A stretch of 32,000 nt of DNA from Candidatus Calditenuaceae archaeon HR02 (GTDB taxonomy: Archaea > Thermoproteota > Nitrososphaeria_A > Caldarchaeales > Calditenuaceae): contig BEHE01000006.1 of NCBI GenBank assembly GCA_002898395.1, positions 61,122 through 93,121 on the forward strand. Direction: 5' to 3'. The notes below the pieces were generated by a model. That model did not search any database, was not told where the DNA came from, and was given only the letters and a program-made list of their open reading frames with translations. Shown here in pieces: positions 6,666 to 32,000 of the stretch. The number at the start of each line of letters is the position of its first letter. Position 1 is the first letter of the stretch. The position numbers were made by a program, and so were the translations under genes.

Positions 6666-6968
6666 GTGGAAGCCAACCAGCGGGTCTACCACGTCACCAG
6701 CGGCGCCCAAGACCTCGAGAGAATACTCCTATCAGACGATACAGCCTCTAGAGCCAACATCGTCCTGAAGGACGCTAAACTACTCCTCGGCCGCGAGGGC
6801 TACTACATCAGGATAGTTGGGACTGAGGAGCAGCTGAGAAGGGTGGACGAGCTGCTAAGGGAGAAGGCGAGGCTCGTGGTGGGCGAGGAACTTGGCCAGG
6901 TCATCGCAAAGATGAGGGAGGAGGACGAGCGAGCACTTTCAGGCTTTGGGGGAATCTTCACGGAATAG
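6666..6968 (+). CDS. Small (100 aa) hypothetical protein with an acidic C-terminal tail resembling ribosomal stalk proteins
   Basis: Tracked ORF with GTG start and a correctly spaced TATA box. The central part is a charged helical region (EEQLRRVDELLREKARLVVGEELGQVIAKMREEDE). The tail ALSGFGGIFTE resembles the aP1/P1-P2 stalk C-termini. Confidence 0.5.
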   Translation: MEANQRVYHVTSGAQDLERILLSDDTASRANIVLKDAKLLLGREGYYIRIVGTEEQLRRVDELLREKARLVVGEELGQVIAKMREEDERALSGFGGIFTE

Positions 6969-7023
6969 CCAAACCCTCAAAGATAAATCCAGCAGTCCAC
7001 ACAAACAATATATGCGGGGGCAA

Positions 7024-7153
7024 GCGGGGGTGGCCGAGCCAGGTCAAAGGCGGCGGCCTCAAGAACCCACCAAACAGGAAGAGGGAGCCGCTCCCGTAGG
7101 CCAGAGAAAAGTTGGGGCGGATGGGTTCGTGGGTTCGAATCCCACCCCCCGCA
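7024..7153 (+). tRNA. tRNA-Leu(CAA), class II, with two introns
   Basis: Structure: GCGGGGG-TG-GCC-GAGCCAGGTCAAA-GGC-G-GCGGC-CTCAAGA. The anticodon CAA is at 7060-7062. The 3' anticodon-stem strand GCCGC is at 7087-7091, which implies a ~22-nt intron after position 37 (about 7064-7085). The variable arm TCCCGTAGG / GGGTTC is split by a second ~22-nt insert (about 7101-7122). The T arm is GTGGG-TTCGAAT-CCCAC, and the 3' acceptor strand is CCCCCGC plus discriminator A. Spliced length is ~86 nt. Confidence 0.85.
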
Positions 7154-7157
7154 CATC

Positions 7158-7166
7158 TTTATTTTT
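7158..7166 (+). terminator. T-run terminator after tRNA-Leu
   Basis: TTTATTTTT begins 5 nt after the discriminator base. This is the typical archaeal oligo-T termination signal. Confidence 0.5.
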
Positions 7167-7266
7167 CTAGGGGTAGTTGGGAGGGTATTGTGGCTTGGTT
7201 GTAAGCGTGAAGCTAGGTTTGGAGGGGAAAAGAGGGGGGAGGGGTTGGTATTAGTCCTCCTTCTTC

Positions 7267-7696
7267 TGAGATATTCTTCTAGCCTTATCATTTTTCTATC
7301 AATGGTGAAGCCAACAGTCTCGTAGAACCTCTTATTAAAGCTCATGCATATCCTGACGTAATATTCGTCTTTCCTTCTTTTGCATAGTTTGCCTGTCTTT
7401 GGACCTCTTAATGGATTGCCAGCTAGAATGTGTTTCTTCGGCTCGTTTGTAGTTGACTCAATACCTACTTTCCTCTAGAGATATAGGACATGTGTCAGCA
7501 ACGCATAGTCAGTGTTGTCCACGAATATTTGACCATTTGTAGAAACACATCCCTCGCTGTCAAAGAACCCTCTCAGAAACACTGCAATGCATCTCTCACA
7601 GTGCTCAACGAATGTCTTGGACTTAACCCGGACCACCCATCTTCCTTCTTTATTTAGCCTTGGTATCGGCGGTTCTCTACCGAGGACGTTTGCCAT
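7267..7696 (-). pseudogene. Decayed LAGLIDADG endonuclease gene (paralogue of 30856..31728)
   Basis: Two minus-strand fragments are collinear with the C-terminal ~160 residues of the 30856..31452 protein. They are MANVLGREPPIPRLNKEGRWVVRV...CERCIAVFLRGFFDSEGCV...DNTDYALLTHVLYL-stop (7475..7696) and MSFNKRFYETVGFTIDRKMIRLEEYL (inside 6977..7345). The first LAGLIDADG motif and the HTH are missing, there is an internal deletion and a break between the pieces, and the stop codon is lost so the frame runs on into the tRNA. Confidence 0.6.
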
Positions 7697-7812
7697 TCTC
7701 CTGTTAAGCTGAGACGATTGGGGCGGGGCGACCCGTGTTTACCTGCCTTCATTTGAGCTGGCTGAAACTCTCTCCCTCACCTATTCATAGAAATGGGGAA
7801 AACCGCAGGTAA

Positions 7813-7854
7813 ATACTAATGCGTAAAATTTTATGCATTAGAATACATTAGTAT
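7813..7854. promoter_or_regulatory. Candidate operator: 26-nt near-perfect palindrome plus a third half-site, upstream of the molybdoenzyme operon
   Basis: CTAATGCgTAAAATTTTAtGCATTAG (7816-7841) is palindromic apart from one mismatched pair. The half-site recurs as ATACTAATG (7813-7821) and CATTAGTAT (7846-7854). The centre lies ~80 nt upstream of ATG 7908. Confidence 0.4.
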
Positions 7855-7868
7855 ACTTTTGCAGATTC

Positions 7869-7880
7869 ATAAATAAATTT
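7869..7880 (+). promoter_or_regulatory. TATA-like box of the molybdoenzyme operon
   Basis: ATAAATAAATTT is centred ~34 nt upstream of ATG 7908, which is consistent with a very short 5' UTR. Confidence 0.45.
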
Positions 7881-7907
7881 CTCTCAGCTTCCATTTAAAT
7901 TGAATTC

Positions 7908-10346
7908 ATGTCCGGTGTTAGTCGCAGAGATTTCGTAAAGGTAGCTATCGCTACAGCGGCGGCCGGAACAATAGGCACCCTTGTATCAGTGCCGCGTGGG
8001 GTGCTCCTTCAGCTACAAACCGATGTATTGCACGCTGAATCGGGGTATAGGTTTGTCCAGGATAGTTGGGTGGCGAGCACTTGTCTCCAGTGCCCAGCCG
8101 GCTGCGGCATAGCTGTACGAGTTGTTGGGGATAGGGTGGTGAAGATAGAGGGTAACCCACTCCACCCTATAAATAGGGGCTCCATATGCCCCAAGGCCCA
8201 CTATGGGCTCCAGATACTCTATGATCCTGACAGGGTTAGGGGCCCGCTTATCAGGGTGGGGGAGAGGGGCTCGCATGGGTTCAGGGAGGCTAGCTGGGGG
8301 GAGGCCCTGAGTCTTGTCGCTTCTAGGCTCCTTGAACTGAGAAAGGCCGGCACGCCTGAGAGGTTTGTCTGGCTAGACGGCAGGGTTAGAGGGAATATGG
8401 GCGACTTCATCACGAGATTCACCACCGCTTATGGGACACCCAACCGGATAGGCCATAGCAGCATCTGCTCCGACGGCGCCGTGATAGCCCACTACCTCAC
8501 ACAGGGAGTTAAGCACTACCTCGCATACGACTGGCAGAACACAAACTATCTCCTACTATTCGGCGCCTCCTTCCTAGAGGCATGGCGCCCTACAACGAGG
8601 CTTCTTAGAAGCTATGGACACATCAGGGGCGAGAGGCCTATCAGGGCCAAGATAGTCGTCGCAGAGGTGAGATACTCAACTACCGCCGTCAAAGCGGACG
8701 AGTGGCTGAGGATAAGGCCAGGGACAGATGGCGCACTTGCTCTCGGCATAGCCCACGTGATTGTTAGGGACAGGCTGTATGACAAGGAGTTTGTCGAAAA
8801 CTACACCTACGGCTTCGAGGAATTCTCTGAACTGCTACTATCTAAATATGGCGTGGATTGGGCTGAAAAAATCACAGGTGTTCCGGCAGAGACGATTGAG
8901 AGAGTCGCACGCGAATTCGCGACCACGAGGCCCGCCATAGCAGCTGGCCAAAGAGGAGCCATGATGCAGCCCAACGGTGTCTTCAACTATATGGCTATAC
9001 ACTCGCTGAACGCGTTGGTCGGAAGCATCGGTAAAAAAGGTGGAGTGCTTGTCCAGAAGTCGCCGCCGTTCAAACCATGGCCTCCCCTCGAGCTTGACGA
9101 GGTCGCAAAGGCAGGGTTAAGCAACACGAGGATAGACTACGCCGGGACAGAGAAGTATCCATTCGCAAAGAATGTTTACCAGCAGGTCCCAGAATCGATA
9201 CTCGAGGAAAAACCCTACCCTGTTGAGGTGCTGATGACATACTACACCAACCCAGTGTTCTCTTCACCCAACATGAGTATGTGGCAGAAAGCTTTGGAGA
9301 AGGTGCCGTTCATAGTAAGCACATCACCCTTTATGGATGAGACTACATCCATCTACGCAGACGTCGTCCTCCCAGACCACACCTATCTGGAGCGGTTTAT
9401 GGATGACGTCATCTACCCGAGCCTAGGCTATCCGGTGGCCTCCATCCGCCAGCCAGTAGTCAAGCCGCTCTACAATACGATGAACACTGGAGACGTCATA
9501 ATTCAGCTTGCCAGACGTATCGGCGGAGTAGTTTCCGCTGCATTCCCATGGGATACCTTCGAGGAGGCGATAAGATACAGGTGGAGTGGTGTATGGGAGA
9601 GTGGGAGAGGCAAGGTTGGCCCAATACGCTTGAACCGAATGAGCAGCTTCGAGGAGTTCTGGTCCAACGTCCTCAAGTACGGTTTCTGGGCCGAGCCACC
9701 CTATGTTTTTGAAGATTATGAACACGAGCTTCGAACAAGGACCAAGAAGTTTGAGTTCTACTCCACGATGCTTGAAGAAAAGCTGCAGGCTCTGGCGGAG
9801 AAGCTCTCAGAGAAGGAGGGAATCCAATTTGAAGAGGCATTTGAGAAGGTTTTAAACAGTCTGAACATCAAGGCGAGGGGCAAGGAAGTCTTCCTACCGC
9901 ACTTCGAGGAGCCGGAGTTTGTGGGCAGCCCAGCCGAGTACCCCCTCATCCTAGCCACCTACAAGTCAATCATGCACGCTGAGGGGAGAGGCACCAATAG
10001 CCCATGGGCCTTGGCCAGCTGGGGGCCACACGTCAGGATGGGCTGGAGGAACTGGGTCGAGATACATCCACTCGCGGCGGAGAAGCTCGGCATCAAGGAC
10101 GGCGACGCGGTCGTCGTCGAGTCGCCCGCCGGCCGCCTAGTAACCGTGGCGAAGATACGTCAAACATCGTCGCCCGAAGTGGTTGTTATGCCCTTTGGAA
10201 TAGGCAGGTCGGCCTATGGCAGATGGGCCTCTAGGACAGGCAAGAATGTGAACGAGATACTTGCAGAGAGGCGGGAGATGCTCTCGGGCTCGGCCGGTTT
10301 CACATCTACCCGTGTGAGGGTCTTCAAGGTTGGAGGTGGTGCCTGA
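7908..10346 (+). CDS. Molybdopterin (bis-MGD) oxidoreductase catalytic subunit, Psr/Phs/Sre/Ttr-like, Tat-exported
   Basis: Twin-arginine signal MSGVSRRDFVKVAIATAAAG. N-terminal [4Fe-4S] motif CLQCPAGCGIAVRV...GSICPKA (C-x2-C-x3-C-x27-C). 812 aa, followed by FeS and NrfD-type subunits. The substrate cannot be assigned from sequence alone. Confidence 0.9.
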   Translation: MSGVSRRDFVKVAIATAAAGTIGTLVSVPRGVLLQLQTDVLHAESGYRFVQDSWVASTCLQCPAGCGIAVRVVGDRVVKIEGNPLHPINRGSICPKAHYGLQILYDPDRVRGPLIRVGERGSHGFREASWGEALSLVASRLLELRKAGTPERFVWLDGRVRGNMGDFITRFTTAYGTPNRIGHSSICSDGAVIAHYLTQGVKHYLAYDWQNTNYLLLFGASFLEAWRPTTRLLRSYGHIRGERPIRAKIVVAEVRYSTTAVKADEWLRIRPGTDGALALGIAHVIVRDRLYDKEFVENYTYGFEEFSELLLSKYGVDWAEKITGVPAETIERVAREFATTRPAIAAGQRGAMMQPNGVFNYMAIHSLNALVGSIGKKGGVLVQKSPPFKPWPPLELDEVAKAGLSNTRIDYAGTEKYPFAKNVYQQVPESILEEKPYPVEVLMTYYTNPVFSSPNMSMWQKALEKVPFIVSTSPFMDETTSIYADVVLPDHTYLERFMDDVIYPSLGYPVASIRQPVVKPLYNTMNTGDVIIQLARRIGGVVSAAFPWDTFEEAIRYRWSGVWESGRGKVGPIRLNRMSSFEEFWSNVLKYGFWAEPPYVFEDYEHELRTRTKKFEFYSTMLEEKLQALAEKLSEKEGIQFEEAFEKVLNSLNIKARGKEVFLPHFEEPEFVGSPAEYPLILATYKSIMHAEGRGTNSPWALASWGPHVRMGWRNWVEIHPLAAEKLGIKDGDAVVVESPAGRLVTVAKIRQTSSPEVVVMPFGIGRSAYGRWASRTGKNVNEILAERREMLSGSAGFTSTRVRVFKVGGGA

Positions 10347-21733: not shown

Positions 21734-22621
21734 CTAGGGGCTCACCCTCTCGACGCCCTCCCGCATCTTCTCGGCGTCCTCCCTCACCGCCGAGTTCTCA
21801 AGCCGCGCAGGGCCTTGGGAACGCATCCTATGCGCCACGGCGGCCATCGCTAGCGCCAGCGCATAGGCTCTGTCACCAGTCTCAAGTAGGCCGACGAGGT
21901 AGGCTCCGCCCACTACGTCGCCGGCGCCCACCGTGTCCACAACCTTTTCAGCCCTCACCAAGCCCCTCAAGACCACGCCACCCCCACAGACCCATATGCC
22001 GTGTGAGGCTGAGGAGGCCACTACATCGCAGCCAAGCGTCTCAGATGCCTTGACGACAGCTTCGCGCGGTGTGGAGTATCCGAGGGCTCTATACTCCTCC
22101 TCGGAGAACCTCAAGACACTTACGCCCCTGAACTGTTCGAGGCTTATCGGCCTTAGGGACACGCTGTTGTCCGGACCTAGGACCCTCATCATCCCCTGCG
22201 GGTCCAGCGTAACTATCCTAAACCTCTCCACAGCAGCCGCAACCAGCTCTGCGGAGACCTCCCCCGCGACTGGGCCGAGGTAGATGGCGTCTGCTTCTAG
22301 CTCCAGCTGCTCCACGCTTATCTCCGCGCACCTCGCCGGGACCCACATCCTTCGGCCGCCGTCAAGCCTCTCAATCCTGAAGCGAGTGGTCACATGACCC
22401 TCTAGCACCCTAACGTGGGACGTGTCCACGCCGAGCTCCCTGAGCCTGTCTAGGAGCCAGAGACCATCGGAACCGATGGCGGAGACCACCAACGCTCTGT
22501 GTCCGAGCGAGGAGATCGTTAGGCCGGCGTAGGTTGGGACGCCGCCGGGCGAGACTCTCCCGCCCCCGTGCCAGACCACCTCGTCCACCACTACATGACC
22601 CACAACCCCAATCCGCAGCAC
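21734..22621 (-). CDS. PfkB-family carbohydrate/nucleoside kinase
   Basis: N-terminal GVVGHVVVDEV...GGVPTYAGLTISSLG and the C-terminal PfkB signature DTVGAGDVVGGAYLVGL. It ends 25 nt upstream of the methyltransferase start. Confidence 0.8.
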   Translation of the reverse strand: MLRIGVVGHVVVDEVVWHGGGRVSPGGVPTYAGLTISSLGHRALVVSAIGSDGLWLLDRLRELGVDTSHVRVLEGHVTTRFRIERLDGGRRMWVPARCAEISVEQLELEADAIYLGPVAGEVSAELVAAAVERFRIVTLDPQGMMRVLGPDNSVSLRPISLEQFRGVSVLRFSEEEYRALGYSTPREAVVKASETLGCDVVASSASHGIWVCGGGVVLRGLVRAEKVVDTVGAGDVVGGAYLVGLLETGDRAYALALAMAAVAHRMRSQGPARLENSAVREDAEKMREGVERVSP

Positions 22622-22773
22622 AGAGACTCAACAACCCATGCCCACAAAACAAGATAAAACTCTATAGACGGGCTGGAATAAAACTGTCTTAAACCTAACT
22701 ATTCCAGATCCTCTATTCCTGTGGTTATGTATCTCTTCTCAGGGTTATTTTTTCTCGGCTTTTTTCTGAGCGC

Positions 22774-23545
22774 TCATCTCGGCATCATAAGGGATAGCAG
22801 TGTACTGAACCACCTTGTAGGCATGTTGATCAAAAGGGCTGGGAACGACAGGTATCCTTGCAGGTACCTCTTACTGACTCCCCTGAACTTCATCAAGAAC
22901 GGCCTTAGAAACGATTGTCTGTTCTCGCAGTGGTTGATGTGGACGATCTCTTCAGCATACCTTTCAGAGTGCCTTATCCTCAAATGAGATATGCCGATTG
23001 AATCGAGTCTATCGTATGCCTTGTACTAGTCTGTTATAACTATGCAGTCCCCAGAAGCGATAGAGGATATCTCGTGAACTGCCTTCTCCATGTCATTCAT
23101 CACGACGAACTCCATCACTCCATCTAGCCTCCTGACTAGGTTCATAACAGGAGGCCTATCACCATCATATTTTCGCCTTCCCCTAACAGATAATTCCCTC
23201 CTAGGATCATCGCCTTTAACGCCCTTATCCCCCACGCTCACGTATCCCTCGTAAGCCTCGCATAAACCCCCAGCCTAATCCCGCCCACCCTCTTAGCTAG
23301 CTCCCGCACCTCCCTCACGAAATTTAGGACCAACTCAAAGTCCCTACCAGGCCCCCTAGATATCTGGTTATCTCCATTGAGAGTATGATGTAGAACATCT
23401 CCTCCAGGCTAATCCTATATTTAGAGAGTATCGTGTCTGTTAAATCGTTGAACTTCCTGTTACATAATGTGCACTCGTATACTTGGTATCAGTTCCTGTC
23501 CTTTTACACACACCTTAGACCATCCCTGAACCTTATCCGCCTGAG
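22774..23545 (-). mobile_element. IS1595-family transposase remnant (multiple disruptions)
   Basis: Minus-strand pieces: a Zn-ribbon N-terminus (CVCKRTGTDTK / YECTLCNRKFNDLTDTIL, ~23460-23520), GDRPPVMNLVRRLDGVMEFVVMNDMEKAVHEISSIASGDCIVITD-TAG(23026..23028)-YKAYDRLDSIGISHLRIRHSERYAEEIVHINHCENRQSFLRPFLMKFRGVSKRYLQGYLSF. The last segment is the ISXO2-like DDE C-terminus. There are frameshifts in the N-terminal part. Confidence 0.65.
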
Positions 23546-23655
23546 TTGAGGCACCTCTCCCTATCGGGAAGGAATACCGACCTGACCGCATCAGGGTCCA
23601 CGACGAATATACCGGGAAGAAGACATATTAATCTCCTCTGAGACCGAGATGAGCG

Positions 23656-24117
23656 ATGCTCGAAGAGCTTGTAAAGCGGTTAGAGGGTGCATCGAAGGAT
23701 TTAAAGCGGGTTTTCGGCGAGTCCTTTACTGGCTTGCTACTTTTTGGAAGCCATCCTAGAGGCGAGTCTTCTGAGGAAAGCGATATCGATGTTCTTGTGG
23801 TTGTGAGGGGGATCAGGGGTTTAAGGATTAGAGGAGAGATTTACAGCGTCCTGGCCAAACATGTTGGAAAACCGCTTACACTAATTGTCGTGGATTTGAC
23901 AGATCTCTTGAGAGACGACCTAGAAATTACGCCGCTGTTGCTTAATGCACTCTATGACGGTATCACAGTATATGATGAATTTGGAGTGCTTGAAAAGTTG
24001 AAGTCGAAGGTTACCGAACTAGTCAAGAAAGCTGGTCTCGTAAGATACAAGACGCCTGACGGAAAATATGGCTGGAAGAGGTCTGATGGTAAACCTATCG
24101 AGGCCGTAGAAGTTTGA
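23656..24117 (+). CDS. mntA: Minimal nucleotidyltransferase (MNT) antitoxin-type protein
   Basis: GSHPRGESSEESDIDVLVVV (GSxxRGxxxxxSDxDxxV). A TATA-like CATATTAATC lies ~29 nt upstream. The stop overlaps the HEPN gene start. Confidence 0.8.
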   Translation: MLEELVKRLEGASKDLKRVFGESFTGLLLFGSHPRGESSEESDIDVLVVVRGIRGLRIRGEIYSVLAKHVGKPLTLIVVDLTDLLRDDLEITPLLLNALYDGITVYDEFGVLEKLKSKVTELVKKAGLVRYKTPDGKYGWKRSDGKPIEAVEV

Positions 24118-24548
24118 GGTTTAACCCAAGAAACGAGTCGTCTTACAAAGCAAAGCTTGCTGTTCGGTATCTGGAGGAGGCCGAGGAGGCTTTTAAGCGG
24201 AGGAATTATAGAGAGGTGGTGGCTTCATCCCAGCTCAGCGCTGAGAACTCCGCGAAAGCGGTCATAGCATTGTTTAGGACCTCAAGCTGGAGTCACGACC
24301 CATCATACGAGTTACTTGAAGTCTTATCGATGCGGCCCTCAGATCTGAGGAAGTTAGCTGAAGAGCTCGCTGAGATTACCAGACGGCTTGCACCAGAACA
24401 TGGGAGGGCAACGTATGGTGAGCCCTTGAGAGGTCTTACACCTTGGGATATATATGATGAGGAAAACGCTTCTGAAGCGCTTTTGAGTGCTAGGAAAGCC
24501 AAAGAGATAGTGGAGATAATACTTGGGAGGTTAGGGGCGTCTTTATAG
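24114..24548 (+). CDS. hepT: HEPN-domain toxin-type protein
   Basis: Helical 144-aa protein with the R-x4-H motif (RLAPEH). The TTG start overlaps the MNT stop by 4 nt, which is the canonical MNT-HEPN gene order. Confidence 0.7.
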   Translation: MRFNPRNESSYKAKLAVRYLEEAEEAFKRRNYREVVASSQLSAENSAKAVIALFRTSSWSHDPSYELLEVLSMRPSDLRKLAEELAEITRRLAPEHGRATYGEPLRGLTPWDIYDEENASEALLSARKAKEIVEIILGRLGASL

Positions 24549-24603
24549 TATGTTGAAAAATGTGGCTCCTGCCTGCAGGCCTGCAAATCGTATTCAGTAG
24601 GTT

Positions 24604-25430
24604 GATGCGTTGTGGCTTAATTCATAGGTTCCTTTAGATTCCCGAGCCTAGTCTCCGGCATCGTCTGGGCGCTTTTCGGGTTTTGATGGCGTTCTCTTAT
24701 AAAGAGTAAGGTCTATGGCCTGCCGTTACTTCCCTTTATCGATGAGCTCCTACTTGGGGAGGGTTGATGAGAGGCTGATAAGGAGGGGTGAGATAATACT
24801 GGACCTTAGGTTCGTTAAGAGTTACTCTGATGAGCTTAGGGAGTTGAATTATGGTAAGAGGGTTAGGCCATACAGGATAATCATTAGCTTCATCATATTC
24901 CTAGCTGTTCTTGGTATGTTTTCTCTGTTGGGTTTAGGCAGCTGGAGGGGTTCACTATAGCCCTTAGGAAGATATTCCCAATACTTCCCAGCATAGACTA
25001 TTCATGGATTAGGGGGAGGATGATGAGGCTAGGTATCGATCTAAGCCCCCTAAAGGCACTGAGAGATTCTAGAGGGCCTGTAGTTGTAGTCTTGGATTCT
25101 ACTGGTGTTAGGGCATGTAGGGCTGGTTCTTGGCTTGAGAGGAAGTATGGTAAGAGGAGGAGGTATGTGAAGGTCCACTTCTCTGTAGACGCCAAGACCG
25201 GAGAGATATTGGACTTGGATGTGACTAGGGACGACGTTCACGACTCGGAGATGACCATGAAGATGGTGGAGAATTCAATGAAGTCTAGGAAGGTCTCAAG
25301 AGTGGTAGCCGATGGAACGTACGACTCGATCAGGTTGTACAGATATCTGGAGAGCATGGATATAGAGCAAGTGATCAAGACGAGAAGGGAAGCGAGGGCG
25401 GATAGAGGGCCTCCCTCTAGGATGCACATT
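24604..25430 (+). mobile_element. IS5-family-like element, left end plus N-terminal two thirds of the DDE transposase (frameshifted, truncated)
   Basis: Terminal 20-mer GATGCGTTGTGGCTTAATTC at 24604-24623. The transposase reads SYLGRVDERLIRRGEIILDLRFVKSYSDELRELNYGKRVRPY... (24715..), shifts frame near 24925-24932 to FRQLEGFTIALRKIFPILPSIDYSWIRGR, then continues VVVLDSTG ... VVADGTYDS ... IKTRREARADRGPPSR. Family similarity stops at ~25430, and the third catalytic (E) region is absent here. Confidence 0.6.
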
Positions 25431-25922
25431 CTTTTAGATAGGATAGATTTAATGCTTGAGAGAAAAGATGCATTGGGTGTAATAACTTATGATTATGAGG
25501 GAAAGAAAGACGCCTTGTATAGAGGACTGCTGGACGAGTTGAGGGAGGAAGGTTCACTCATGTGGCCTGATATGAGAAGGCGCAAGAGAAGGAATATCGT
25601 GGATACGATTCACTTTCTCCAAAATCACCTTTCGTACGGTCTTCAATTAGCGGGCATAGTAATCTATCAACTTAGAGGAAAATACGAATCCCCAAATAAA
25701 GTGGGGATTTCCTTGTCTCTAATTGAGAAAATATTTGACAAAACCCAGAAACAGGTAGTTATATAACGTGGGGCCTTAAAGTGTTACCATCTATGGATTG
25801 AGGAGCGGCTGGGAGAGGACGTCGTTACGAACACCTATCTTGGTCGCTATGGGCGGTCCACCAGTCGCAACTATTAATATGTAGAGTTAATATTTAGCCT
25901 CAGCGAGGCAATAGGGAGAGGG

Positions 25923-26324
25923 CTATAATATTTCGCTTATGCTAGTTACCTTAATCATTTTTCTCGCTTTATCCCTTAATTCAGCATCTTCTGTTACTAG
26001 GGCTAAGCCATTATCTTTAGCCAAGACTACATAGGATGCGTCATAGGCTGTAATCCCTAATTTACCTGCTGTTTCTAGGATCTCATGTTCGTGAGAATGA
26101 GGACTTAGCACGTTCACAACATCTATAATGTCTCTTAGCACATCAACGATTTTGCGTGCCTCCTCAGCGTTAATGCTACCTATCAAGAACGCCTCCTTCC
26201 ATATTGCATTAACCACTTCGTAGATCGTTAACCAGTGGATGTAGTTGTTATTAAGGGGCTTTAGCTTCCTAAGCTTTAACAAAAGTAGTAATGATGATGC
26301 GTCAAAAAGAAGAACATCCCCCAA
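25923..26324 (-). CDS. vapC: PIN-domain ribonuclease toxin
   Basis: LLFDASSLLLLL (first acidic residue), ITAYDASYVVLA, LVTEDAELRDKA. 133 aa. It lies 7 nt downstream of a small antitoxin-like gene. Confidence 0.85.
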   Translation of the reverse strand: MGDVLLFDASSLLLLLKLRKLKPLNNNYIHWLTIYEVVNAIWKEAFLIGSINAEEARKIVDVLRDIIDVVNVLSPHSHEHEILETAGKLGITAYDASYVVLAKDNGLALVTEDAELRDKARKMIKVTSISEIL

Positions 26325-26331
26325 TCAATAG

Positions 26332-26562
26332 TCACCTAGATTTCCTGTCCTCCCGAATCATTTGGGTTATTCTATTAATGTCGAGCTTATCGAGAGCGAT
26401 GCCGAGATTCTCAAGCTTCTTCTCTAGCTCCTCAAGCTTACGTCTCCTAACTTCCTCTTCTAGCGCATGCCTAAGCACCTCAGAGACCTTTACACCGAGC
26501 CGCTGCGCCTCTTCTTTCAACTTTTTCTGGACTTTTGTGGAAATAGTTACGTACTTAACCAA
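26332..26562 (-). CDS. vapB: VapB-type antitoxin (RHH/CopG-like N-terminus plus coiled tail)
   Basis: 76 aa with TTG start. VTISTKVQKKLKEEAQRLGVKVSEVLRHALEEE fits a beta-strand/helix-helix DNA-binding fold. It sits directly upstream of vapC. Confidence 0.65.
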   Translation of the reverse strand: MVKYVTISTKVQKKLKEEAQRLGVKVSEVLRHALEEEVRRRKLEELEKKLENLGIALDKLDINRITQMIREDRKSR

Positions 26563-26628
26563 GCCGGCGCCCTATTTGGTAGTAATAGTATGTAGTAAAT
26601 AAAGGTTTACACGGGCTAATTGATGGTG

Positions 26629-26705
26629 CCCGGGTAAGCGTCTCTAACCACCCCCGCTTTTTACCGCATGATAGTAGATTGCGAATAGGTTTAGGTTCTT
26701 TATTC
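26629..26705. repeat. Left copy of an ~80-nt inverted repeat (partner at 30246..30334)
   Basis: The reverse complement GAATAAAGAACCTAAACCT-ATTCGCAATCTACTATCATGCGGTAAAAAGCGGGGGTGGTTAGAGACGCTTACCCGGG aligns with 30246-30334. By manual count, 18 of 19 and 45 of 58 aligned positions are identical. The partner carries a 12-nt insertion. Confidence 0.65.
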
Positions 26706-26921
26706 TTTGCGTGTGGTTCCTCGCGCTTAATTTGCTGTGGAATACCTCTGTCCTCTCTTTAGGTACCTGAAGAACCTCTCGACTCTATTCCTCATCCCGA
26801 GTCTCTGGTGCTCGTACTCCAGTCCTAGCCTCTCCAATGCCCATATATACCGAGAACCCCTAATCCACTATTATCTTAGGCCTGTTCAGGCATTTTCCTA
26901 TTCCTAGTCCTTCTTTAGGAA

Positions 26922-27345
26922 GATGCCTTGTGGCTTAATTCTCTAGCTCGATGCCCTCTTCTCCTGCTGGTGGTACTTTGTCTTGGTTTTATACCGCGTT
27001 CAGTAGGAGGTTGTATATGTATGCCTTCTGTACCATCTCTACCTTCATCCATCTTTGGCTTATTGGATAGTACTTCCTCCCCGAATATGGATTTGAATAC
27101 AGATATTGCAGTTTCTGCCACCGAGATGAGAGAAAGAAAAAATAGGGGGAGGGTTTTCGTTTGCTTCTCCCGTTTTCCGAGCTCATCCCTCTTCACTGGC
27201 GCTTTCCTCGCTTCGCCAGCAACCTCCTCCTTCTGCGAGCCCTTCCAGACCTGTCCCTTAGGCAGGGGAAATACCCGATCCCCTGTCGCCCGGTTGGGTC
27301 TCACGGACCGGGCGAGCCTGGCTCTACGGCACGTCCTCGGAGGAA
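26922..27345 (-). mobile_element. IS5-family-like element, right end plus C-terminal third of the transposase (frameshifted)
   Basis: Terminal 20-mer GATGCCTTGTGGCTTAATTC at 26922-26941 matches the 24604 end at 19 of 20 positions, oriented as an inverted right end of a minus-strand copy. Minus-strand frames give LPPRTCRRARLARSVR..., SSRW / VAETAISVFKSIFGEEVLS (the E-containing DDE box) and the ISQRWMKVEMVQKAYIYNLLLNAV-stop tail. Confidence 0.5.
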
Positions 27346-29561: not shown

Positions 29562-30245
29562 GCAATATTTTTCGACATGCGTAATCCAATCGCTCATCTT
29601 GCAATAGTGTACTAACCTCAAGTTTTTCAGATTGACGGAAAGCCTTGAAGGTCGAGGGATTATAATACGACGTTTTCAGGAAGAGGAAGAGCTCTAGGCT
29701 CATGCCTGCATAGATTGCAATCTAACGTCGAATACAACCATAGGCCCGTGTGGCTAACACGACTCCACGAGGCTCATGGATCTGGTCTACAGGCTATGAT
29801 AAGCTCGGCCTCAGAAGGGATTAATATCTTCTAATGCACATGTTGATAGTATTCGGATAAGGGGTGTATTTAAAGGCCAGGATGTAGTGGCTGTTTGTAT
29901 GGATGTTGTTGCGTTGGTCTCCAGCTGTTTTAGGCGTAATAAAAAAGGCCGCGAAGTTAAGATGCTTGCCGTCATAGATTACATGTTCCACGGCAGCTTT
30001 AGGAGGGGCCTCTAAGATACCTAGCATAGCTGTTGAGCCCATAAGCAAGTCTACTGTACACGAGCCGGCTGAGAAGGCATCCTCTATAGTAGCAATTGCC
30101 TCCTAGATAAATCTTGAACAAGCCAAAAACCATAGTTAATGAGGCCCCTGGTATAGGTGGGCACTAGAGACTAAGATTAGAGTAAGAGTACGAGAGGCTC
30201 GGTATGAGAAGTAGAACCATATAAGTGTGAGGAATTACAAGCAGG

Positions 30246-30334
30246 GAATAGAGAACCTAAACCTCTTCCCGAACCTATTCGCCATGTACTATCACGCGAT
30301 GAGGAGTGGGGGCGGGTAGAGATGCTTATCTGGG
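30246..30334. repeat. Right copy of the ~80-nt inverted repeat (partner at 26629..26705)
   Basis: GAATAGAGAACCTAAACCT[CTTCCCGAACCT]ATTCGCCATGTACTATCACGCGATGAGGAGTGGGGGCGGGTAGAGATGCTTATCTGGG. See 26629..26705. It ends 60 nt upstream of the 5S rRNA gene. Confidence 0.65.
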
Positions 30335-30362
30335 ACTTATCCCCAGCGGTAGGTGGAAGGGC

Positions 30363-30370
30363 TTAAATAA
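30363..30370 (+). promoter_or_regulatory. TATA box of the 5S rRNA gene
   Basis: TTAAATAA is centred ~27 nt upstream of the predicted 5S 5' end (30394). Confidence 0.55.
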
Positions 30371-30393
30371 CGGTCTAGAGATGCCATCATCCG

Positions 30394-30522
30394 AGGCCGT
30401 TGCCGGTCATAGGGTAGGGGAAACACCCGGTCCCATTCCGAACCCGGAAGTTAAGCCCTACCCGCCCGGCGAGTAGTGCTTTGCGGGAGCGGGCGCGAAA
30501 GCCGGGTGCTGGCAACGGCCTC
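30394..30522 (+). rRNA. 5S ribosomal RNA (unlinked from 16S/23S)
   Basis: Helix I: GAGGCCGTTGCC (30394-30405) pairs perfectly with GGCAACGGCCTC (30511-30522). The conserved core is ACACCCGGTCCCATTCCGAACCCGGAAGTTAAGCC. Confidence 0.9.
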
Positions 30523-30650: not shown

Positions 30651-30750
30651 GCCGGGGTGCCCTAGCCCGGTAGGGGGGCGGACTAGTATGGCCCAAACTG
30701 CTAATCTGCTGGGCGACGAGCCCGCGAGGGTTCAAATCTCTCCCCAGGGC
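30651..30750 (+). tRNA. tRNA-Ser(GCU), class II, with a non-canonical 15-nt intron and an imperfect acceptor stem (possibly a pseudo-tRNA)
   Basis: Structure: GCCGGGG-TG-CCC-TAGCCCGGTA-GGG. The anticodon stem is GCGGA (30678-30682) / TCTGC (30705-30709). The loop is CTGCTAA with GCT at 30700-30702. A 15-nt insert (30683-30697) lies between the 5' stem strand and the loop. The variable arm is GGGC-GACGA-GCCC and the T arm is GAGGG-TTCAAAT-CTCTC. The 3' acceptor strand reads CCCAGGG(C) instead of CCCCGGC. Confidence 0.65.
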
Positions 30751-30855
30751 TCGTATCTATATTTCTAGATTGGTGAGGGGTGTTGGTTTGATTATAGGTA
30801 AGTGGAAAAATGAAGGGGGGAGGAAAAGAGAGGGGGGTTGGTATTAGTCCTCTTC

Positions 30856-31728
30856 TCATGAGATATCTTCTAGCCTTCTCCTCTTTCTATCAATGGTGAA
30901 GCCGACATTCTCGTAGAACCTCTTATTAAAGCTCATGCGTATCATGACGTAATATTTGTCTTTCCTTCTTTTGTATAGTTTACCTGTATTCGGAGCTCTC
31001 AACGGTGTACCAGCTTGTAGCTGTAGTTTTGGCTCGTCTGAAGTCGTCTCAATACCAATCTTCTTCAGGAGATATATCACATATTTGAGTAACGCATGGT
31101 CGGTATTATACACGATTATGGTGCCGTCTTTATGGACGCTTGCCTCGCTATCAAAGAATCCTCTCAGAAACATTGTGATGCATCGCTCGCAGTATTCAAT
31201 GTATGGTATGATCTTATCGATGCCGATTGGATTCTTGAGCAGTTCATAGAGAGTCCTAGACTGAACTAGTACGACCCATCTACCATATTTATTTAGCCTT
31301 GGATTCAGTGGTTCTCTTCCCAGGACATTCGCCACCCTCCTGCCTAATTCTTCGTCGAACTCTCTGTCCTTAACCTCTAACACTATGTAGCATTCCCTGT
31401 ATCCACACCGTGGCTTGCTTCTCTGATAAGCATATCCATCACCAGCCACCACTCCAATGACATATGCCAGGTCTTCTGATGGCTTCAGGAATTCTATCGA
31501 CGGTATCCTTATACCATTGCATACGCTATGTATTCATCTGCACCAGAAGCTACAGTGAGACTCACTGATAATAACACTATATCTTAGCTTTATCTCATTG
31601 ATTATCTCCCTATATGATAGTCCTTTTCCTCGAAACTCTAAGACATCCTCATAGATCCTTATCCTCAGCTCTCTGGGACGATAACTTCCCCTTCTCTTCC
31701 CCACTATTTCCTCGCCCCTACCACTCAT
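30856..31728 (-). pseudogene. HTH + double-motif LAGLIDADG homing-endonuclease-like gene, interrupted by one in-frame TGA (31534..31536)
   Basis: Tracked ORFs 31534..31728 (MSGRGEEIVGKRRGSYRPRELRIRIYEDVLEFRGKGLSYREIINEI...) and 30856..31452 are in the same frame. The sequence between them reads ...SFWCR-TGA-IHSVCNGIRIPSIEFLKPSEDLAYVIGVVAGDGYAY... The two motifs are LAYVIGVVAGDGYA and FLRGFFDSEASV. The composition is AT-rich. Confidence 0.7.
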
Positions 31729-31729
31729 T

Positions 31730-32000
31730 CTACACCACCTTTCTGAATGCTAGGGTGTATTCGTGCCATAGGTCGTGGCTGTGTCCCTTTATTGTGTGGT
31801 ATCTGGCTAGGCCGGTGTTGGATAGCTTGAACCTCAATGTCTCTACGTGTTTAAACCCGATAATCTCTGCCAGCTCTATTGTCAGGCTTACTAGGTCTCT
31901 TGATAGCTTGTGTAGCTTGTTGTTCCTGAAGTTCTTTAGGACTATTACTGCTAGGTCTCTGTTATTGTTGGTTCTGTTTAGGCATAGGTACATCGAGGCC
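31730..32000 (-). CDS. Hypothetical protein, 5' end possibly beyond the window; tightly coupled to the LAGLIDADG gene
   Basis: Tracked ORF 31730..31993. The frame stays open to base 32000. Its TAG stop lies 1 nt before the ATG of the HTH-LAGLIDADG frame. The composition is AT-rich like its neighbour. No family was recognised. Confidence 0.35.
   Translation of the reverse strand, partial: ASMYLCLNRTNNNRDLAVIVLKNFRNNKLHKLSRDLVSLTIELAEIIGFKHVETLRFKLSNTGLARYHTIKGHSHDLWHEYTLAFRKVV

Follow-up and report, generated by a model that had tools for sequence, protein, structure and literature searches.

Degraded LAGLIDADG endonuclease genes beside tRNA genes of a Calditenuaceae archaeon and their relatives in Nitrososphaerota

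Two endonuclease pseudogenes and their tRNA neighbours

The window analysed here is a stretch of 32,000 nucleotides from Candidatus Calditenuaceae archaeon HR02 (contig BEHE01000006.1). It holds two copies of an AT-rich gene for a LAGLIDADG endonuclease with an N-terminal helix-turn-helix (HTH) domain, each convergent with a tRNA gene and abutting its 3' end: copy B beside a tRNA-Ser(GCU)-like gene, and copy A beside a tRNA-Leu gene (Table 1). Archaeal LAGLIDADG genes are classically found within rRNA introns and inteins. An earlier description made from the letters alone (hereafter the original prediction) had offered two options for copy B: a homing-endonuclease cassette that stands alone, or one edge of a larger integrative element that continues past the end of the window. 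In both cases the element was proposed to target the 3' flank of tRNA genes.

Table 1. Coordinates of the two cassettes and of the features adjoining them in the window.
Feature	Coordinates	Strand	Evidence
Copy A side
tRNA-Leu gene with intron, intact, adjoining copy A	7024..7153	+	Rfam, ARAGORN with introns, acceptor check
Copy A, decayed cassette remnant (tail and codons ~125-290)	7154..7716	-	Nucleotide alignment, tblastn, frames
Rest of the enlarged spacer, copy A to oxidoreductase gene	7717..7907		Comparison with HR01 locus L182
Copy B side
tRNA-Ser(GCU)-like gene adjoining copy B	30651..30750	+	Rfam sub-gathering, manual reading, alignment to other tRNA-Ser genes
Copy B cassette tail, present stop codon to tRNA 3' end	30751..30855	-	Copy A alignment, frame analysis
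Copy B, HTH and double-LAGLIDADG endonuclease pseudogene	30856..31728	-	Translation, Pfam LAGLIDADG_3 match
Copy B N-terminal part, three-helix HTH domain (residues ~18-64)	31534..31728	-	P0003 model, weak Pfam HTH matches, ORF list
Upstream neighbour ORF of copy B (P0121-like; 113 aa in relative), outside the cassette	31730..32000	-	Homology to L181

The 291-codon minus-strand frame described for copy B (31728-30856) has the length, the two quoted LAGLIDADG motifs and the domains that were claimed for it, but it is not open. Its codon 65 is an in-frame TGA (31534-31536) that severs the HTH part from the nuclease core, and the open reading frame (ORF) finder returned a 64-aa and a 198-aa piece split at this TGA; the 198-aa ORF (30856-31452) matches HRbin02_00793 of the aigarchaeon Ca. 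Calditenuaceae archaeon HR02 with 99% identity. The repaired translation, searched against LAGLIDADG profiles as the original prediction had proposed, gave a significant match to Pfam LAGLIDADG_3 (PF14528; E 1.4e-14, 54.5 bits for a cutoff of 22.5), and also matched the intein-endonuclease parts of several NCBIfam models. A frameshift near 30860-30870 removes the conserved C-terminal tail. Copy B terminates with RLEDIS and a stop codon, where copy A reads RLEEYLRRRRTNTNP; the +1 frame of copy B runs on as ...HEKRTNTNPP, and copy A crosses the same C-terminal region in a single frame, RLEEYLRRRRTNTNPSP. The stretch GGGGTTGGTATTAGTCCTC is thus former coding sequence (RRTNTNP), so that the 105 nt previously taken for a non-coding spacer consist in part of lost codons (RTNTNP...), together with a T-rich stretch beside the tRNA.

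Copy A lacks its 5' part (the first ~124 codons), and contains one in-frame stop and a 48-nt deletion. Its occurrence behind the tRNA-Leu gene, in the same convergent orientation as copy B, had been noted correctly: the two copies share ~79% nucleotide identity, and 61% amino-acid identity over residues 125-282 (tblastn). Their alignment extends up to 1-4 nt from each tRNA end, in agreement with the earlier remark that similarity begins a few nucleotides from the last base of each tRNA. Beyond the cassettes, the flanks of copies A and B are unrelated, and the cassette is all that the two loci have in common; their origin by one segmental duplication, which had been named as an outcome that would undermine the proposal, was therefore ruled out. 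Both copies are also AT-richer than their surroundings, as first described, with a GC content of 0.429 for copy B (30751-31729) and 0.442 for copy A (7154-7716), compared to 0.546 for the whole window and 0.569 for positions 1-22500. Both window copies are dead genes at a stage of decay, a point that was missed in the original prediction.

The extent of the cassettes was analysed by comparison with related genomes (loci and proteins carry L and P numbers). A homologue of the ORF upstream of copy B (31730-32000+) occurs on the European Nucleotide Archive (ENA) contig L181 (1401-1742), where the encoded protein, P0121, is 88% identical. The nucleotide homology to L181 (91.6%) stops at 31729, right after the stop codon of this ORF, and a different gene comes next in L181. 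Copy B therefore spans 30751-31728/9, which upholds the cassette coordinates given originally (30751-31728). At copy A, the comparison with cassette-free alleles that had been called for was provided by the related aigarchaeon HR01, whose locus L182 contains an orthologous oxidoreductase gene (88% amino-acid identity) preceded by tRNA-Leu, with no LAGLIDADG remnant, and thus represents a cassette-free allele. The 3' end of the HR01 tRNA-Leu gene is 94% identical over 34 nt to that of the window, and the spacer between tRNA-Leu and the oxidoreductase gene measures 235 nt in HR01 versus 754 nt in the window. Only the last ~90 nt of the region 7717..7907 align with the HR01 allele. Related genomes are thus polymorphic for presence and absence, as expected of a homing gene, at copy A (L182) and, with respect to the upstream ORF, at copy B (L181).

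The upstream ORF has no Pfam match and ends 1 nt before the cassette, and the different gene of L181 starts right at the stop codon of its homologue. A weak tblastn match of the P0121-like ORF (E 6e-4) was also observed just upstream of LAGLIDADG genes in L028 and L029, on the opposite strand.

The tRNA-Leu gene scored 42.9 bits in Rfam, was called by ARAGORN with introns allowed, and forms 7/7 acceptor pairs. The gene beside copy B, originally named tRNA-Ser, does read as a tRNA-Ser(GCU) that has a long variable arm and, in its anticodon loop, a 15-nt intron, but its Rfam score is below the gathering score (19.9 versus 29 bits), its acceptor stem has 5/7 pairs, and its T-stem includes a G-U pair. 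With default settings ARAGORN called no tRNA in the window, and with introns allowed it called the tRNA-Leu gene and nothing at 30651-30750, where the tRNA-Ser-like gene was recognised by relaxed Rfam thresholds and manual reading. This gene may be a pseudo-tRNA or otherwise defective, a chimera, or mis-assembled. Co-conversion from a donor tRNA, which could yield such a chimera, is not typical of the cassettes in general, because the acceptor stem is perfect in nearly every other tRNA that they target. A 5S rRNA gene (30399-30517) lies 133 nt upstream of the tRNA-Ser-like gene. The positionally orthologous tRNA-Leu genes of HR02 (7024-7153) and HR01 (L182, 522-656) have the acceptor stem and T-arm in common, their introns differ in sequence and position, and their anticodon loops appear different; this points to tRNA intron turnover between these close relatives.

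A family of HTH-LAGLIDADG proteins at tRNA 3' ends

A word-indexed search returned more than 200 homologues of 290-430 aa, nearly all from metagenome-assembled genomes (MAGs) of Nitrososphaerota and from hot-spring and soil metagenomes, with several per genome. When 50%-identity representatives were scanned with HMMER, 69 clusters were found at E<=1e-30 and 422 at E<=1e-10. The size of this family, its spread across Nitrososphaerota and the independence of its targeting from tRNA identity had not been foreseen in the original prediction. LAGLIDADG_3 was matched by 46/46 family members (best E 1.6e-22), and LAGLIDADG was the only enzyme domain detected in them with Pfam. In the alignments, G96-D97 of motif 1 (..AGDG) and D193-S194 of motif 2 (..FDSEG) are invariant, and E195 is conserved in at least 90% of members. 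LAGLIDADG matches from DPANN archaea (L051-L058) were not retained as family members, as they are 23-31% identical, cover the nuclease core only, and have neither the HTH part nor an adjacent tRNA.

For the intact homologue P0003, which shares 63% identity with the window protein, AlphaFold gave a model with a pLDDT of 90.2. This model consists of a three-helix N-terminal domain (residues 20-35, 40-51, and 57-64) followed by a double-LAGLIDADG core, with LAGLIDADG helices at 86-96 and 182-196 and beta sheets after each; the predicted chain thus carries two LAGLIDADG helices in the alpha-beta-beta-alpha-beta-beta-alpha order of a pseudo-dimer. In a Foldseek search of the PDB with this model, I-DmoI ranked first and the top 35 matches were all I-DmoI chains except PI-PfuI at rank 14, which agrees with the I-DmoI-like architecture read from the sequence. 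The N-terminal domain of family members weakly matched HTH_33, HTH_32, and HTH_21, all below the curated cutoffs of Pfam. The family is best explained as encoding a monomeric LAGLIDADG endonuclease of the I-DmoI type, fused to a transposase-like HTH domain at its N-terminus.

Among 59 loci from GTDB representative genomes, 50 belong to Nitrososphaerota. No intron or intein context was found at these 50 loci, where the gene is intergenic and antisense to the adjoining tRNA, and we therefore classed it as free-standing. Four of the 50 loci end too soon downstream, leaving 46 that are informative for the association with tRNA genes. A convergent tRNA was detected at most 500 nt downstream of the gene in 31 of the 46 by ARAGORN with introns allowed. 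Rfam added three loci (34/46), and an antisense T-arm motif five more (L001, also tRNA-like in Rfam, L019, L021, L033, and L046), to reach 39/46. Given how densely other tRNAs are spaced in these loci, ~0.36 loci would be expected by chance (binomial P ~1e-54). The proposed targeting of tRNA 3' flanks is therefore supported, with 31-39 of 46 loci and a significant LAGLIDADG profile match. Not every copy lies 3' of a tRNA, a point that the original prediction had asked to be tabulated (see below).

The adjoining tRNAs are of the Asp, Val, Ser, Pro, Gln, Leu, Arg, Cys, Thr, Ala, Gly, and Tyr types among the 46 loci; a tRNA-His at L059, a marginal partial relative outside the 46, and a tRNA-Lys-like fragment at L017 bring the total to at least 14 types. 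The tRNA is mostly located 70-120 nt past the end of the protein match. The stop codon may fall within the tRNA, by up to ~100 nt, or outside it, at a distance of up to ~160 nt, and some ORFs run into the antisense T-arm, which gives them GFEP or DLNP tails. Almost all target tRNAs have 7/7 acceptor pairs, and insertion thus leaves the tRNA undamaged. The niche of the family, which is specific to Nitrososphaerota (Aigarchaeota/Thaumarchaeota), is best explained as the position directly after the last base of a tRNA of any identity, in convergent orientation, although this preference is not absolute.

Purifying selection was detected on intact copies, including pairs within one genome (dN/dS 0.10-0.38), and ~15 of the 46 copies, about one third, carry stops or frameshifts. 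Intact copies under selection are thus found beside degenerate ones, as in a cycle of invasion and decay. Family members are often found at contig ends, as expected because a repeated element breaks assemblies.

Boundaries of the cassette and possible modes of spread

Within a genome, the sequence common to the copies is a unit of ~1-1.4 kb that does not include the tRNA itself. In SKYB24, copies at tRNA-Ser, tRNA-Pro, and tRNA-Val cluster together, as do those of BF2_8 at tRNA-Val, tRNA-Leu, tRNA-Pro, and tRNA-Thr, with one more preceding a tRNA-Lys-like 3' fragment. In the BF2/JZ lineage, the cassette tail ...CACGATAATAATGTACAAGGT reaches 0-1 nt from the discriminator base at six different tRNAs, and in the SKYB24 lineage the similarity likewise runs up to the tRNA ends. 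Taking these lineages and the window copies together, similarity among copies ends 0-4 nt from the last base of the tRNA. No conserved neighbour family, integrase, or transposase was found within 6 kb on either side at 60 loci, where only local synteny between relatives was seen, and an exact-seed search at 31 loci revealed no convincing att-like direct repeat of the tRNA 3' part upstream of the gene. We discarded the one candidate attR, found upstream of the gene in L011, because it resembles a further tRNA with an intron. For the cassette ends of L006, L017, and copy B, scores of terminal inverted and direct repeats fell within the distribution of shuffled sequences, and no target-site duplication exceeded chance. 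The cassette has neither the terminal inverted repeats and target-site duplication of an IS-type transposon nor a DDE, serine, or tyrosine transposase. Given that the searches of these loci turned up neither an integrase nor a conserved neighbour, terminal repeat, or att duplication, we consider the element to be a single-gene cassette of ~1-1.4 kb.

Several observations were made on individual cassettes. In L017, a tRNA-Lys(UUU)-like 3' fragment extending from the anticodon arm to the 3' end (8327-8375) lies directly after the cassette stop codon and ~225 nt before a complete tRNA-Arg, which suggests that a cassette can carry along a piece of its previous tRNA target. Two cassette copies (6967-7619 and 8424-8993) are ~1.5 kb apart on the L023 contig; one adjoins a tRNA-Pro gene, and the other is partial, with no detectable tRNA. 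In one sublineage, a hairpin, CGTGGTGGGG...CCCCACCACG, is present in the GC-rich leader or N-terminal extension (L006 ~640-700; L017 ~7320-7380), and L016 (~9930-9990) shows a variant of it with compensating changes, GGGTGGGGG...CCCCCACCC; the hairpin may be a structured element of RNA or DNA, or just part of the coding sequence. Positions 1-50 of the ENA contig L060, which holds the closest intact relative, are a Nextera adapter (an assembly artefact).

Taken together, these data make it likely that the element in the window is a decayed form of a free-standing cassette with one gene, which encodes a homing endonuclease directed at tRNA-gene 3' ends. The enzyme would recognise DNA spanning the tRNA 3' end (the T-arm and the acceptor strand) and the native downstream flank, and would cut alleles devoid of the cassette; repair of the double-strand break from a cassette-bearing template would then copy the cassette in. 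Insertion just past the discriminator base would keep the tRNA intact, destroy the recognition site and supply an AT- and T-rich 3' flank. Occasional ectopic events, perhaps through short homology among tRNA 3' ends, may seed new tRNA loci in the genome, and fixed copies would then decay. The postulated reaction would be cleavage of double-stranded DNA by the family enzyme at cassette-free tRNA 3' ends, and the precise junction at the tRNA 3' end is consistent with cleavage near the insertion point, without proving it.

A number of points weigh against this interpretation. Cleavage, the target site, and the recognition-site model are pure inference. Homing by homology alone leaves the precise junction at unrelated tRNA loci unexplained, since these have no distal flanking homology, and the distal (5') boundary varies by lineage, from 0 to ~470 nt upstream of the conserved N-terminus. 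Copies without a tRNA were found at L002, L003, L004, L007, L040, and L060. The last of these encodes P0001, a relative 77% identical to copy B that lies beside a TBP gene, and it indicates both that the gene is mobile and that its association with tRNA is not absolute. The 3'-end profiles of targeted and non-targeted tRNAs showed no clear difference, with ARAGORN ends varying by 1-3 nt. Among 120 metagenome loci recovered by one scan with the 3'-end sequence of the window tRNA-Leu, none carried a cassette, so that this sequence alone does not attract it; most of these loci come from unrelated organisms and none is related to the window locus, and they serve as a negative control only. Finally, in soil Nitrososphaerales the gene occupies syntenic tRNA-Cys and tRNA-Ser loci in several species, which would fit long vertical retention as well. 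At these tRNA-Ser(GCU) and tRNA-Cys(GCA) loci (L032/L046/L047/L048/L050 and L034/L036/L041/L042/L049), the flanks are 74-88% identical and the cassette is much more diverged or decayed than they are.

Three other explanations were weighed. The LAGLIDADG gene might be carried along at that edge of a larger element which faces the tRNA, with tRNA genes as attachment (att) sites for a tyrosine integrase encoded elsewhere in it; for copy B this element would extend past base 32000. The survey of thaumarchaeal integrated elements (Krupovic et al. 2019, PMC6563490) describes tRNA genes as the classical att sites of archaeal integrative elements, which favours such an origin, and does not mention LAGLIDADG genes, which speaks against it. 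The AT-rich composition persists to the end of the window (GC 0.458 over 31730-32000), a co-oriented ORF adjoins the start of the copy B gene, and other mobile-element genes are present in the window (MNT/HEPN, DDE transposase, and PIN). Like SSV- and pNOB8-type tyrosine-integrase elements, the cassettes lie on the 3' side of archaeal tRNA genes and have a foreign composition and a patchy distribution; unlike them, they were found with no tyrosine recombinase, att duplication, or cargo, and are ~1 kb long instead of 5-100 kb. With no integrase and no neighbour family common to the 60 loci, no upstream tRNA repeat acting as attR (the L011 candidate resembles another tRNA), within-genome units of only ~1-1.4 kb, and the end of upstream-ORF homology at 31729 with a different gene beyond it in L181, this origin appears highly improbable; of the two options offered originally, the free-standing cassette is supported and the edge of a larger element is not.

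It is also very unlikely, in our opinion, that the gene encodes a domesticated, WhiA-like HTH-LAGLIDADG protein with a function linked to tRNA genes (in regulation, termination, or genome maintenance) that spread by ordinary duplication, even though selection on intact copies, the syntenic position that the gene keeps beside tRNA-Cys and tRNA-Ser in several Nitrososphaerales species from soil, the intact state of the target tRNAs, and weak matches of 10/46 members to the LAGLIDADG-like profile of WhiA would all fit. WhiA, too, is encoded by a chromosomal gene outside introns and joins an HTH domain to a LAGLIDADG scaffold. However, its HTH domain is C-terminal, its LAGLIDADG part lacks catalytic residues, and it is single-copy and vertically inherited, whereas the family described here has an N-terminal HTH, keeps the catalytic acidic residues in both motifs, and is multi-copy and often decayed: about one third of its copies, including both in the window, are pseudogenes. 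Its variable copy number, patchy distribution, empty orthologous site in HR01, foreign-looking composition, and a duplicated unit that excludes the tRNA all argue against domestication, as does the comparison of L048 and L050, in which the flanks are 74-83% identical and the gene less than 70%, that is, the gene diverges far faster. A new type of cut-and-paste or copy-in transposon, in which the HTH-guided nuclease would itself insert the cassette at tRNA 3' termini with no homologous repair, seems unlikely as well. It would account for junctions that fall, at unrelated tRNA loci, 0-1 nt from the discriminator base, for spread within a genome to tRNAs of differing identity, for the resemblance of the HTH to those of IS630-, IS3-, and IS481-type transposases (HTH_33, HTH_32, and HTH_21), and for the tRNA-Lys-like fragment that accompanies the cassette in L017. 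It would not be expected from the lack of terminal inverted repeats or target-site duplications above chance, from the variable 5' boundary, or from HTH matches that are all below the Pfam cutoffs, and we know of no LAGLIDADG enzyme that catalyses strand transfer. As the homing cassette would have to seed new tRNA loci devoid of flanking homology, we keep a transposition-like, HTH-guided route under consideration. More tentatively, the cassettes could represent an unrecognised class of Nitrososphaerota mobile elements, in which the HTH-LAGLIDADG enzyme would recognise tRNA 3' termini in general, through the DNA of their shared T-arm and acceptor end instead of any single sequence, and drive insertion exactly after the discriminator base, possibly independently of homology by means of the HTH domain.

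Related systems, other features of the window, and significance

The homing cassette favoured here resembles several known systems in part. With I-DmoI and its kin, also archaeal, the family shares the single-chain fold with two LAGLIDADG motifs (PDB matches with E ~1e-9 and TM-scores of 0.72-0.76 on the target) and the conserved acidic residue that ends each LAGLIDADG helix. It differs from I-DmoI in that it is not in an intron or intein, has an additional N-terminal HTH of ~65 residues, is only 17-20% identical in sequence, and lies beside its presumed target gene, the tRNA, not within it. The free-standing GIY-YIG endonuclease SegB, from the tRNA gene cluster of phage T4, spreads by intronless homing, cleaving genomes that do not have the gene. 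As with SegB-type enzymes, the family gene is a stand-alone, intergenic endonuclease gene next to conserved genes and associated with tRNAs, and its spread by cleavage is the part that we postulate; it differs by its LAGLIDADG motif, its location in archaeal chromosomes, its many copies at many tRNAs, and its nucleotide-precise junction at the tRNA 3' end. Like Ty3 and the TRE elements of Dictyostelium, the cassettes use the flanks of tRNA genes of any identity as a safe harbour, but they are DNA cassettes with a LAGLIDADG nuclease and not retrotransposons targeted by the transcription machinery, and the resemblance is one of niche only.

Other features were observed in the window. Positions 22500-27000 form an AT-rich island (GC 0.46) that includes a nucleotidyltransferase/HEPN pair (23656-24548), a DDE_Tnp_1 transposase gene (25020-25766), and a PIN-domain gene (25923-26324), and it is probably another mobile or defence islet. 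An inverted duplicate of ~170 nt, ~78% identical, occurs at 26580-26790 (minus strand) and 30180-30400 (plus strand). Its right copy is immediately upstream of the 5S rRNA gene, and the pair brackets 3.5 kb of ORFs that lack matches in Pfam. The duplicate may represent a promoter or leader that was copied, or else an RNA missing from the annotation.

The family is large and apparently undescribed. The original prediction had not recognised the arrangement as a described one, and no description of it was found in the literature searched, including a survey of thaumarchaeal mobile elements, the Caldiarchaeum genome paper, and a paper on Caldarchaeales MAGs. These data bring to light a free-standing LAGLIDADG lineage, of ~400 clusters at 50% identity, on the 3' ends of many tRNA genes across a phylum. 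To our knowledge, the 3' termini of tRNA genes as a class have not been described as a niche for prokaryotic DNA elements.

For annotation, ORFs labelled as LAGLIDADG family homing endonuclease or intein-encoded endonuclease-like beside tRNA genes in these archaea should be read as mobile cassettes that are often pseudogenes. If the homing interpretation is correct, the family would represent a new strategy for a homing endonuclease, which settles beside a conserved RNA gene instead of inside it. It would help to explain why, beside tRNA genes, aigarchaeal and thaumarchaeal genomes show AT-rich islets and breaks in their assemblies, and the cassettes could have a part in the rearrangement and disruption of tRNA genes in thermophilic archaea. 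The family would also be a source of thermostable meganucleases that carry an additional HTH domain, and their natural targets could be deduced directly from genomic junctions. Should tRNA 3' ends be recognised in general, the cassette would be the first known case, among prokaryotic DNA elements, of targeting to tRNA genes as a class, and an analogue, in its niche, of the eukaryotic elements that target genes transcribed by RNA polymerase III.

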